Shown piece after piece: positions 41,864-43,606 of a stretch of DNA of 64,000 nucleotides. The notes beneath the pieces were generated by a model, which was given only the letters and a program-made list of their open reading frames with translations, made no database searches and was not told where the DNA came from. Numbering within the stretch: position 1 is the first letter of the stretch; each line of letters starts with the position of its first letter. This DNA comes from Escherichia phage HMD-6: sequence record PQ505080.1. One strand, written 5' to 3'. The position numbers and the translations under genes were made by a program.

Positions 41864-41888
41864 GCCTCACCTTCGGGTGGGGCTTTTT
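41864..41888 (+). terminator. rho-independent terminator
   Basis: Hairpin GCCTCACC-TTCG-GGTGGGGC followed by TTTTT. Confidence 0.7.
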
Positions 41889-41950
41889 GCTTTCAGGGTT
41901 TTGACATATTTGTTTGTTTTTAGTATCCTATAATAAAGGAGGAGACAGTC

Positions 41951-43576
41951 ATGGCTAAATTGAGTGCAGAAAGGTTTATCGAAAAAGCTCGTAGGGTTCA
42001 CGGAGATAAGTACGACTATTCTCTTATAGAATACAAAACATGCAAAGATAAGATAGAAATAGTCTGCAATACCTGTGGTAACCACTTCAACCAGACACCG
42101 GATAACCATATAAATCTAAAAAGAGGATGCCCTGTTTGTGGAGCTGAGAGATCTGCAAAATCAAGAAAGGGTAAGAAATTCCCCCATGAGCGTGGTAACA
42201 GGTGCACTACAGAAGAGTGGATCAAGAAGGTACTAAAAAGATATCCTGAAAATGCTGAAAAGTATGATTATAGTCATGTAGTGTACAAGACCTCTGGGGA
42301 TAAGGTTGAGATTCATTGCAAAATGTGCGGAAGAATAATGCACCAGAAACCTAGCAAGCATTTATCAGGGCAAGGGTGCAAGACTTGCGCAGCAAGATCT
42401 GTTTCTGCGAAAAAAGTTCCTAGCTTCCAAGAAATAGTTGAGAGATGTGTAGAAGTACATGGTAGTGATTATGAGTATTTTGAAGACTCTTATGTGAACA
42501 CCTCAACACCTATGATGATGCGCCACAAAGAGTGTGGGAATATCTTCATGCAGCGTCCTGAATTCCATTACGGGAAAGGACAAGGATGCCCTCGTTGCTG
42601 TCGAAATCAGTCTAATGGTGAGAAAGAGATCCTGACGTTCATTAAAAGTGTGTATAGCGGCGATATTGAAGAGAACGTGCGTATTCTGGACAACTTTAAG
42701 GATCCTTCCAAGAAAAAGATGGAGCTGGACATTTATGTTCCGGAGCTTAAGCTTGCTGTGGAATATAATGGTGCCTACTGGCACTCTGTAGACAGTAAGG
42801 GGAAATGGTACCACATCCTGAAAAGGAAGGCTTGTGAAAAACAAGGTATTCGCATGTTGTCTATCTGGGATTGTGATTGGCAGGATGCTCGGAAAAGACC
42901 TATCATTGAGAGATATCTCAAGAATGCTTTAGGGGTCAAAGACGAGAAGACCGTCTATGCCAGAAAGTGCACAGTTAAAGATGTGGACAATAAAACTTAC
43001 CGTGACTTTATGGAGAAAAACCACATTCAAGGGTATGCCCCAGCCAAGGAAGTGAAGAAGGGTCTGTTTACATCTGACGGCGAGCTGGTAGCTTGTATGA
43101 GTTTTAAAATACTGAAAAACAGAGATCAAAAGGTAACCCCTTTCGTTATGTGGGACATGGTAAGGTATGCAACAAGCTGTAACGTTCCCGGTGGGCGTAG
43201 TAAGCTGTTTAAGCATATCCGAGAAGAGTTTAAGATGGATCATGTTCAATCCTTCCTTGACAGAGATTACTTCACAGGCGTGTCCTATAAGGAGGAGGAT
43301 GGCTGGATTTTGGCAGAGGACGATCAGGTGTCTACGAGCTTCTGGAGCTACCGTGGTGGCAGAATGCCAAGGCAGGCGTGGTGGAAGTCAAACATCCCAG
43401 AGACACTGAAGCATCTCGGGTTGGACGAGTCCTTATACGATCCTGAGAAAACACAAGAGTGGAATGCCAAAAATGCAGGCTGCTATATCCTTGAAAACAG
43501 TGGCAACTCTCGCTTTGAATGGCACAGTGATGAAGGTAAAAATGATCCTGCATACTTGGATTGGTTGAAAGGTTAA
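41951..43576 (+). CDS. free-standing homing-endonuclease-like protein (repeated Zn-ribbon modules + putative PD-(D/E)xK nuclease core)
   Basis: 541 aa; four repeats of KxxxxxxCxxCGxxF...H...GCPxCG type (CNTCGNHF..GCPVCG; CKMCGRIM..GCKTCA; ..GCPRCC), then ELDIYVPELKLAVEYNGAYWH core; flanked by terminator and promoter inside tail module. Confidence 0.5.
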   Translation: MAKLSAERFIEKARRVHGDKYDYSLIEYKTCKDKIEIVCNTCGNHFNQTPDNHINLKRGCPVCGAERSAKSRKGKKFPHERGNRCTTEEWIKKVLKRYPENAEKYDYSHVVYKTSGDKVEIHCKMCGRIMHQKPSKHLSGQGCKTCAARSVSAKKVPSFQEIVERCVEVHGSDYEYFEDSYVNTSTPMMMRHKECGNIFMQRPEFHYGKGQGCPRCCRNQSNGEKEILTFIKSVYSGDIEENVRILDNFKDPSKKKMELDIYVPELKLAVEYNGAYWHSVDSKGKWYHILKRKACEKQGIRMLSIWDCDWQDARKRPIIERYLKNALGVKDEKTVYARKCTVKDVDNKTYRDFMEKNHIQGYAPAKEVKKGLFTSDGELVACMSFKILKNRDQKVTPFVMWDMVRYATSCNVPGGRSKLFKHIREEFKMDHVQSFLDRDYFTGVSYKEEDGWILAEDDQVSTSFWSYRGGRMPRQAWWKSNIPETLKHLGLDESLYDPEKTQEWNAKNAGCYILENSGNSRFEWHSDEGKNDPAYLDWLKG

Positions 43577-43577
43577 A

Positions 43578-43606
43578 TTGACAATGCACTATAATCATGG
43601 TAAAAT
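43578..43606 (+). promoter_or_regulatory. sigma70-like promoter with GGTAAAAT -10 region
   Basis: TTGACA (43578-43583), 17-nt spacer, TAAAAT (43601-43606) preceded by TGG. Confidence 0.5.

Follow-up and report, generated by a model that had tools for sequence, protein, structure and literature searches.

The locus considered here raises the question of what kind of gene separates the tail tube gene of Escherichia phage HMD-6 from its tail chaperone gene, and whether it moves by homing. In the 64,000-nucleotide stretch of phage DNA that was analyzed (PQ505080.1; the window), the tail tube gene occupies 41372 to 41845 (Pfam PF11681, KPP10_Orf10/tube, E=7e-9; also annotated as tail tube in FFH2 and MaxBurger) and the tail assembly chaperone gene occupies 43650 to 44123 (Pfam PF21822, Phage_TAC_15, E=1e-23), both on the plus strand and both belonging to the phage backbone. 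Between them, the list of open reading frames gave a frame of 541 aa at 41951 to 43576 on the plus strand, which a preliminary description had read as a self-contained homing endonuclease cassette of a possibly distinct type. The Pfam matches confirm the two neighbors that it had named, and the frame is real, with a Shine-Dalgarno sequence, AGGAGG, read off the sequence at 41937 to 41942 (plus strand), 8 nt 5′ of the ATG. Its product was 99.6% identical to JEP1_014, matched phrog_559 (1e-110) and the “homing endonuclease” family phrog_3339 (6e-67), and had no paralogues inside the window. An AlphaFold2 model built on a 60-sequence alignment reached a pLDDT of 91.4, superseding a single-sequence model that was unusable (pLDDT 36). 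As set out below, the protein is likely a free-standing Hef-like homing endonuclease residing in the tail tube/chaperone spacer of a Vequintavirus (rV5/FV3-like coliphage).

The comparison with insertion-free relatives that the preliminary description had proposed revealed a precise empty site in approximately 119 of 123 close Vequintavirus relatives. The inserted DNA (approximately 1.65 kb; 41907 to 43554, plus strand) was covered in only 4 of the 123 related phage records, a sporadic distribution amounting to approximately 3% of relatives, and its absence always fell at the same point of the tube-chaperone spacer. Among the matches listed, 36 others each spanned 4459 to 4460 nt of the 6101-nt query, a span corresponding to an empty site. 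In the blastn alignment with FV3, homology stopped at 41906, corresponding to L001 3007, and resumed at 43555, corresponding to L001 3014; the junctions are exact to the base, with 1648 nt taking the place of approximately 6 nt of FV3. At the right junction, the last 7 codons and the stop (43555 to 43576, plus strand) lie on sequence that aligns with FV3 and is homologous to the empty site, and position 43564 was G in 5 of 5 insert-bearing phages and C in all 6 insert-free phages sampled. The base composition of the insert (GC 0.41 to 0.47) was not distinct from that of the flanks, and when IMG/VR was scanned for exact matches to the two junction types, empty and filled, one contig came back for each, which is uninformative on frequency. 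With filled and empty sites in near-identical genomes, the locus is a clean natural example of a Hef-like gene, for which crosses and cleavage assays are simple to set up.

These data also bear on whether the product is a variable structural or assembly component of the tail, a reading for which the location within the tail gene block is the sole support. It is effectively refuted by the absence of the gene from approximately 97% of otherwise near-identical phages and by the folds of the protein, all three domains of which are those of nucleic acid enzymes or DNA-binding proteins; nor was any structural-protein family matched. Thus, neither universal presence at this position nor a structural protein, the two findings that the preliminary description had named as fatal to its proposal, was encountered.

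The gene had also been described as bracketed by its own terminator and promoters. An intrinsic terminator of the tube gene was indeed found by scan at 41862 to 41895 (plus strand), with a 10-bp stem that is capped by a UUCG loop and followed by a T-run (hairpin and T-run, 41862 to 41885), its hairpin folding at -21.5 kcal/mol (z = -4.4). The same sequence occurs in insert-free FV3, and in Gotham a terminator and a promoter are annotated at the equivalent points of the tube-chaperone spacer. Upstream of the frame lies a promoter-like site, TTGACA-17-TATCCT (41901 to 41929), of which the -10 alone is on inserted DNA: the TTGACA hexamer (41901 to 41906, plus strand) belongs to the backbone, abuts the insertion on its left, and is found also in FV3 at L001 3004-3009, and the -10-like TATCCT (41924 to 41929, plus strand; promoter scan, 10/12) follows it at 17 nt inside the insert. 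This site is a putative promoter with a weak -10. Downstream, the putative promoter of the chaperone gene, TTGACA-17-TAAAAT with an extended TG (43578 to 43606, plus strand; scan, 11/12), likewise belongs to the backbone, its FV3 copy differing by one base, at 43590, in the inter-hexamer spacer. No terminator was found 3′ of the frame. A strong hairpin with T-run and two promoter-like sites are therefore present as described, but the terminator and the 43578 to 43606 promoter are backbone elements shared with insert-free FV3, and a gene that uses these together with a backbone -35 hexamer is not a self-contained cassette.

The same allele was found in differing backbones. The window and JEP1 inserts were 98.9% identical, and their distal flanks tracked YP-6/FV3 in the window and the Gotham type in JEP1. 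Sites common to the window and JEP1 alone lay at 41737, 41847, and 41896, within approximately 170 nt to the left of the insert, and at 43559 and 43590, within approximately 35 nt to the right, a pattern of flanking-marker co-conversion that consists of a handful of sites in 11 genomes. Divergent alleles were present at the same site: those of A147 and PDX had 77 to 79% nucleotide identity to the window allele versus 93 to 97% in the flanks, and the protein P0025 had 62% amino acid identity. A homologue with 50% identity was located in a Salmonella siphovirus, an unrelated context. The gene is optional, a 1.65-kb insertion always placed at one exact point, and it occurs in different backbones with only short shared flanks. 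What points to homing as such is this distribution.

Pfam and NCBIfam searches with the window protein by itself returned nothing except subthreshold zinc-finger matches, and profiles of its homologues were required. The N-terminal part (41951 to 42610, plus strand) consists of three tandem treble-clef zinc-finger modules (aa 1-72, 73-155, and 156-220), presumed to form a DNA-binding array and following a CxxC/HxxC...CxxC ligand pattern. Where four tandem Zn-ribbon-like modules had been counted before, the window protein holds three ligand sets (C39xxC42...C60xxC63, C123xxC126...C143xxC146, and H190xxC193...C213xxC216); four modules are found in the same-locus alleles of phages A147, A135, and PDX. 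The modules are of the CapR/DUF723/DUF4379 type. The window protein alone fell below the Pfam thresholds (DUF4379, 18.3 versus 24.5 bits; DUF723, 13.9 versus 20.9 bits); its homologues cleared those for DUF723, DUF4379, and CapR well, and the 99%-identical cluster P0001 has a precomputed PF05265 match. A match to phrog_681 was confined to aa 3-235, the zinc-finger part. Domains of this type have been described as DNA-binding modules of homing endonucleases (PMC10448857).

The PD-(D/E)xK-like core suspected earlier is present, in Vsr-like (EDxHD-type) form, at aa 221-333 (42611 to 42949, plus strand). A phmmer search of the single protein against PDB gave only a marginal match to 3r3p (E=0.41), which became significant once a profile was used: the family profile matched I-Bth0305I (PDB 3r3p) at E=8.6e-7 and paired D260 with D196 and H278 with H213, so that the Vsr-like fold is accompanied by detectable sequence homology. 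The first four EDxHD residues of I-Bth0305I (E170, D196, N208 at the x position, and H213) have their equivalents in E224, D260, N273, and H278, which were conserved in 58, 60, 52, and 59 of 60 homologues, respectively, the assignment of E224 being based on position and conservation and not on a printed alignment. The fifth residue, D222, essential in I-Bth0305I, was aligned to H288, a His in 54/60, and no conserved Asp was found close to H288 in the 60 homologues. Because this fifth residue is not Asp, the protein was filed as Hef-like/Vsr-like and not as a literal EDxHD-motif member. The catalytic constellation of the domain appears intact, although the literal motif is incomplete.

The replaced fifth residue, and the reduction of the window allele to three zinc modules where sister alleles have four, might be taken to indicate a decayed or domesticated homing endonuclease, no longer mobile and now either functionless or a sequence-specific DNA-binding regulator akin to the CapR-type zinc fingers that act as repressors in phage satellites (PMC10448857). 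Such decay is very improbable, given that the frame was intact in every copy examined, with the 18 nucleotide differences between the window and JEP1 copies producing approximately 2 amino acid changes and a one-codon deletion, and that conservation extends to the catalytic residues in both of the enzyme-like domains. The sporadic distribution and the presence of the allele in a different backbone also argue for recent movement.

Placement as a Hef-like homing endonuclease was supported by tblastn with aa 215-541 (the nuclease and GNAT part), which matched 417 phage records, several of them carrying the annotation “Hef-like homing endonuclease” or “nuclease/acetyltransferase”; family members are annotated as homing endonucleases in many phages. 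Identity to genes annotated as Hef-like in PA5oct, CP30A, PC14, vB_AbaM_3014, and phiP4-3 was 31 to 36% (E 3e-26 to 1e-23), a homology that refers to these annotated genes and not to the U5 Hef sequence itself. No HNH, GIY-YIG/T5orf172, or LAGLIDADG catalytic domain was matched at E≤1 in Pfam or NCBIfam, in agreement with the earlier statement that the protein belongs to none of these classes. An HNH or GIY-YIG enzyme was rejected on this ground, and an intron- or intein-borne endonuclease was rejected since the gene is free-standing in the spacer. Because there is no HNH domain match, the phrog_559 label “HNH endonuclease” is a misnomer for the zinc-finger/Vsr-like/GNAT architecture; for annotation, the analysis corrects this misleading label and settles the “hypothetical protein” JEP1_014. 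Hef was reportedly described in 2005. I-Bth0305I, the EDxHD prototype, was described in 2011 in a paper that placed Hef-type enzymes in the Vsr-like family (PMC3239194). Of the homing endonuclease proposal in the preliminary description, the mobile-type nuclease gene at a precise site therefore stands, while the distinct new type, like the self-contained cassette, does not: the Hef-like, Vsr-like lineage was already known. The unusual point is that the DNA-cutting domain is fused to a Mom-like domain.

This C-terminal domain of approximately 200 aa (about 334-541; 42950 to 43573, plus strand) had been overlooked in the preliminary description. It has a GNAT fold, and Foldseek with the model returned Mom as the best match, 208 columns being aligned with the Mom chain of 202 residues. 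A profile-profile comparison (hhalign) with 31 Mom sequences gave 95.2% probability (E=2.5e-8, 119 columns), superseding the 4% probability obtained when hhalign was used to align the C-terminal profile globally with the Mu Mom sequence alone. The window protein had no match to Pfam Mom (PF25680) at E≤1, and homologues scored 20 to 25 bits (P0077, 24.7; P0069, 20.1) against a cutoff of 27.1 bits; judged by these scores, the domain is a sister group of the Mom family and not a member. The domain extends, by this analysis, through a very large family: at the 50% clustering level, 8179 clusters carried it (E≤1e-3), mostly at the C terminus of proteins of 430 to 700 aa. Stand-alone GNAT-domain homologues were found on contigs of only approximately 1 kb, whose genomic context is uninformative.

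The catalytic residues of Mu Mom are H58, R111, S124, D149, R151, and Y159 (PMC13219725, PMC7261163), and its chemistry was worked out only in 2026 (PMC13219725). In the alignment, H58 corresponds to H358, R111 to R405, S124 to S417, S146-F-x-D149 to S434-F-x-D437, and Y159 to Y446. H358, R405, and Y446 were conserved in 59/59 homologues, S434 in 56/60, D437 in 49/60, and S417 in 46/60, counts that come from a family of only 25 to 35% identity. Mom R151 aligned to D439 in the window subfamily, where Arg is at 438 instead (R438, 34/60; R439, 19/60). In the model, a helical insertion was observed at aa about 474-508; the HTH-like insertion that Mom requires for activity lies between its last strands. 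Ahead of helix 3, the loop is glycine rich (GGxS), as in CoA-using GNATs and unlike Mom.

The conserved pocket suggests the binding of a flipped base or acyl transfer on DNA, and such a role could serve target recognition or self-protection. The glycine-rich CoA-type loop suggests an acyl-CoA donor instead of the Gly-tRNA used by Mom; in that case, the DNA modification would be one that has yet to be described. Since classical homing needs no DNA-modifying domain, the conservation of this one hints at biology broader than simple homing. A tentative and rather doubtful proposal is that Hef-like homing endonucleases are self-immunizing selfish elements, in which the GNAT domain would place an acyl group covalently on an adenine within or close to the recognition sequence, in the carrier genome or the repaired recipient, and the Vsr-like nuclease would cut the unmodified competitor site. 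If true, the homing endonuclease would carry its own immunity by DNA modification and would amount to a mobile restriction-modification system in one chain. It can now be tested whether DNA modification is a further activity of a common class of phage homing endonucleases.

The same residues bear on a further reading, in which the protein is a single-chain restriction-modification-like weapon: the Mom-like domain would acylate adenines of the carrier, the zinc-finger-guided nuclease would degrade host or co-infecting phage DNA that lacks the modification, and spread would be a by-product of exclusion. The conservation of Mom active-site equivalents across so divergent a family fits this reading, as does the invariance of R405, whose Mom counterpart, R111, is a hallmark of the Mom family rather than of GNATs at large (PMC7261163), and a fusion of Mom to a restriction-endonuclease-fold DNase has been read as a restriction-modification-like conflict system (Iyer et al.; PMC7824862). 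Insertion at one precise intergenic point of several backbones with short shared flanks is, however, the signature of site-directed gene conversion, and zinc-finger modules in an array of this length imply a target that is extended and rare, unlike frequent restriction sites. The 9 to 12 Hef-like copies per Campylobacter phage genome, each at its own locus, also fit homing better than genome-wide restriction, and both the altered R151 position in the window subfamily and the score of the window protein below the Pfam Mom threshold count against this reading. This weapon-like function is distinctly unlikely, though it and homing are not mutually exclusive.

For homing by a Hef-like enzyme, the following course would account for the observations. 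In a mixed infection with an insert-free phage, the zinc-finger array would bind a long target that lies within or close to the uninterrupted spacer of that phage, and the Vsr-like domain would cut the DNA, probably acting as a dimer in the manner of I-Bth0305I. Repair by recombination with the insert-bearing genome would then copy the gene along with tens to about 170 bp of flanking sequence. The genome of the carrier would escape cutting because the insertion splits the site and alters junction bases. The tail operon would be left unharmed by an insert that sits between the tube terminator and the chaperone promoter, reusing the backbone -35 hexamer and bringing no terminator of its own.

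Among known systems, Hef and Hef-like enzymes (U5 Hef; F-LimIII, F-LimVII, F-LimVIII, and F-LimX of Dickeya phage LIMEstone1; the Campylobacter CP220/CP81 type; PA5oct) are likewise free-standing and optional between conserved phage genes, and their zinc-finger arrays vary in number and sequence. Hef-like genes are common in phages, and F-LimVIII of LIMEstone1 also adjoins the tail tube gene (PMC3296691); the Hef of phage U5 cleaves nrdB, adjacent to its own gene (PMC2988022). Within the Hef-like set compared, the tube-chaperone spacer as target site is particular to Vequintavirus-type phages. The tblastn matches to T4-type Hef span only aa about 258-423, and the C-terminal halves may differ. 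I-Bth0305I, which shares the first four nuclease residues and has D222 where the window-protein family has His, is unlike the window protein in being intron encoded, in carrying N-terminal NUMOD/HTH DNA-binding motifs, and in having no GNAT domain. The T5orf172 (GIY-YIG-related) enzymes (Barth, Dunham, and Seed 2023; PMC10448857) have the same type of repeated treble-clef zinc-finger module, with module number varying from allele to allele, but differ in their catalytic domain, no T5orf172 or GIY-YIG match having been obtained for the window protein.

Mu Mom (PF25680; PDB 8bv8) has a GNAT fold and uses Gly-tRNA as the donor of the glycine that it attaches to adenine N6 in double-stranded DNA. 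The C-terminal domain described here is homologous to it at the profile level, is fused to a nuclease and zinc fingers, and has an activity that is at most predicted. The same two-enzyme fusion, of Mom with a restriction-endonuclease-fold DNase, has been described in jumbo phages (Iyer, Anantharaman, Krishnan, Burroughs, and Aravind 2021; PMC7824862). That paper interprets it as a conflict system and not as a homing element and offers no locus-level evidence of mobility, whereas the present case, in a 140-kb non-jumbo coliphage, comes with clear evidence of presence and absence.

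The window derives from a Vequintavirus, one of the E. coli myoviruses resembling rV5 and FV3, and its region 39900-46000 was 97.7% identical to phage JEP1 and 93 to 98% identical to more than 120 further records. The ORF at 41951-43576 (plus strand; 541 aa) has an AGGAGG ribosome-binding site ending 8 nt before its start. The tail tube gene (41372-41845; Pfam PF11681) precedes this ORF, and the tail assembly chaperone gene (43650-44123; Pfam PF21822) follows it. A strongly folding hairpin with a T-run was found at 41862-41885 (-21.5 kcal/mol, z = -4.4), and the two promoter-like sites of the preliminary description were confirmed upstream (41901-41929) and downstream (43578-43606) of the ORF.

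The gene was far from universal at this position, the ORF being covered in only 4 of 123 related records (JEP1, PDX, A147, and A135). Thirty-six other listed records spanned 4459 to 4460 nt for the 6101-nt query, so that about 1.64 kb is absent from them. Against phage FV3, homology ended at 41906 and restarted at 43555, with the FV3 counterparts just 6 nt apart. The empty FV3 spacer has the order terminator-TTGACACACGTT/CTTGAATTGCTTGAAAGGTTAAATTGACA...TAAAAT; because the terminator, first TTGACA, and promoter at 43578-43606 are all already present there, they are backbone elements. In the same spacer of phage Gotham, which lacks the insert, a terminator and a promoter are annotated at matching positions. 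The insert itself supplies nothing beyond the ORF, its ribosome-binding site, and a weak -10 (TATCCT); no terminator of its own lies in 41907-43554, and the final seven codons of the ORF extend onto DNA homologous to the empty site. Contrary to what had been proposed, the cassette is therefore not self-contained; the insert lies downstream of the backbone terminator and upstream of the backbone promoter, which would leave the tail operon normally expressed. Within 41901-41929, the -10-like hexamer of the insert falls exactly 17 nt past the backbone TTGACA, which in the empty site lacks a recognizable -10. The promoter of the ORF may thus have been created by the insertion event itself.

The inserts of the window and JEP1 were 98.9% identical in nucleotide and 99.6% in protein sequence. 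At 1 to 2 kb from the insert, the window resembled YP-6, SYGMH1, and FV3 (0 to 5 differences per 200 nt), whereas JEP1 showed 8 to 11 differences per 200 nt and was instead of the Gotham/FFH2 type. Sites shared only by the window and JEP1 were confined to within ∼170 nt of the insert on the left (41737, 41847, and 41896) and ∼35 nt on the right (43559 and 43590), and position 43564 was G in 5/5 insert-bearing phages and C in 6/6 sampled insert-free phages. Sister alleles occupy the same site in A147, A135, and PDX (about 3030-4910 in their locus sequences, L004, L012, and L003, respectively). They were just 77 to 79% identical to the window allele in nucleotide sequence, with flanks at 93 to 97%, and have a GTG start codon and four zinc modules, the additional module being N-terminal; the modules differ between these alleles. 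The third module of PDX is unlike that of A147, which suggests module shuffling at a fixed insertion site. The records named "Campylobacter phage A147/A135" are mislabelled, marked UNVERIFIED, and classified as Vequintavirus. In a more distantly related phage contig, this tube-chaperone site encodes a 62%-identical protein, and a 50%-identical one lies in an unrelated context in a Salmonella siphovirus. The gene is thus optional, site-specific, and found in more than one backbone. Such a pattern is expected for a homing element that spreads by gene conversion, with short co-conversion tracts and swapping of DNA-binding modules.

Further elements were noticed in the window. An ORF-less group I intron (Rfam RF00028, 81.4 bits, E = 4e-19) at 30809-31087 (plus strand, within 30393-32258) interrupts the gene for the large terminase subunit, with both flanking ORFs matching Terminase_6N; the FV3 gene is uninterrupted, with 7 nt there versus 325 nt in the window. 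In the anaerobic ribonucleotide reductase gene nrdD, an 802-nt insertion (2870-3671) with an ORF at 3059-3610 (minus strand; weak HNH_3 match) is absent from FV3. Elsewhere in nrdD, FV3 carries another HNH endonuclease gene of 798 nt (FV3_00107), at a position that is empty in the window (junction 3971/3972). Two alternative homing endonucleases, one in each phage, thus target this one gene. The segment 18427-19656 gave no blastn match to its 1205-nt counterpart in FV3, an endolysin/HNH endonuclease region, and the window version codes for a different HNH_3 protein (ORF 18906-19670, minus strand). A plus-strand cluster of six tRNAs at 28477-29286 (Rfam; two barely over threshold) is the counterpart of the FV3 tRNA block. 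The segment 56869-58656 (1788 nt) did not match the corresponding 818 nt of the FV3 tail fibre gene region and is likely a host-range cassette.

When the nuclease and GNAT part of the protein was used as the tblastn query, 417 phage records were matched, 236 with at least 80% coverage. Matches in PA5oct, CP30A, PC14, phiP4-3, and one Acinetobacter phage were annotated "Hef-like homing endonuclease" and others "homing endonuclease" or "nuclease/acetyltransferase," and Campylobacter phages carried 9 to 12 copies each. The whole protein matched phrog_559 best (1e-110), as well as phrog_3339 (6e-67), and many predicted structures in BFVD share its overall architecture. The GNAT domain alone matched 8179 clusters (50% identity) at E ≤ 1e-3, mostly C-terminally located in proteins of 430 to 700 aa. 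Hef-type phage endonucleases were assigned to the Vsr-like "EDxHD" family in the I-Bth0305I paper (PMC3239194). The protein is therefore not the distinct mobile nuclease type previously suggested but, by homology, a new member of a known and very common, though poorly characterised, family. In that family, U5 Hef was reported to cleave nrdB, adjacent to its own locus (PMC2988022), and the Hef-like gene of LIMEstone1 adjoins the tail tube gene (PMC3296691), as the window ORF likewise lies downstream of one.

The AlphaFold2 model of the whole protein, built on 60 homologues, was confident (pLDDT 91.4). Residues 1 to 220 form three repeats of ∼70 to 80 aa with CxxC/HxxC...CxxC ligand sets, rather than the four Zn-ribbon-like modules first described. 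These repeats are zinc fingers of the treble-clef DUF723/DUF4379/CapR type, described by Barth et al. (PMC10448857) as modular DNA-binding domains in phage homing endonucleases. The phrog_559 match begins at profile position 121/607, which fits the absence of the first zinc module in the window allele. Residues 221 to 333 form a Vsr-like nuclease domain, the family profile matching the catalytic domain of I-Bth0305I (3r3p; E = 8.6e-7), with D260 aligned to D196 and H278 to H213. E224, D260, E271, N273, H278, and K291 were invariant or nearly so among the homologues, whereas the essential D222 of I-Bth0305I is replaced by His in the family (H288; 54/60 sequences). As the preliminary description had held, HNH, GIY-YIG, and LAGLIDADG domains were not detectable in Pfam and NCBIfam searches, and the phrog_559 label "HNH endonuclease" was therefore rejected for this protein.

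A GNAT domain at residues 334 to 541 had gone unnoticed in the preliminary description. Its top Foldseek match was phage Mu Mom, a DNA-modifying GNAT enzyme (crystal structure 8bv8; E = 1e-5), and its profile matched that of 31 Mom proteins with 95.2% probability (E = 2.5e-8). The Pfam Mom model did not match the window protein, and homologues only came close to it, with 20 to 25 bits where 27.1 is the threshold.

The DNA-binding array and the two enzyme-like domains all appear intact. In a mixed infection, the zinc fingers would recognize a long site within the uninterrupted spacer or close to it, the Vsr-like domain would cut the DNA, probably as a dimer on the I-Bth0305I model, and the gene would be copied with the carrier genome as repair template. 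The preliminary observation is thus confirmed in part and its interpretation supported in part: the distribution, junctions, nuclease, and family evidence support the homing endonuclease reading, but not a self-contained cassette or a new type. Homing is probably the primary biology of the gene. The Mom-like domain may act as a base-flipping recognition module or may instead be an active acyltransferase guarding carrier DNA. The strongest novel form of the proposal, a self-immunising homing endonuclease, is unlikely. A mainly restriction-modification-like role, which would not exclude homing, is likewise unlikely. Having filled and empty sites in near-identical coliphages allows the nuclease-Mom fusion to be tested directly.

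Mom activity requires H58, R111, S124, D149, and Y159 (PMC13219725, PMC7261163). H58, R111, S124, and Y159 are conserved as H358, R405, S417, and Y446, and the S-F-x-D149 motif corresponds to S434-F-x-D437, which is conserved in the family. R111 is a Mom-family hallmark that is not general among GNATs (PMC7261163), and its counterpart, R405, was invariant across the homologues. Mom R151 is shifted or replaced in the family of the window protein, and, in contrast to Mom, the loop preceding helix 3 resembles that of CoA-binding GNATs in being rich in glycine.
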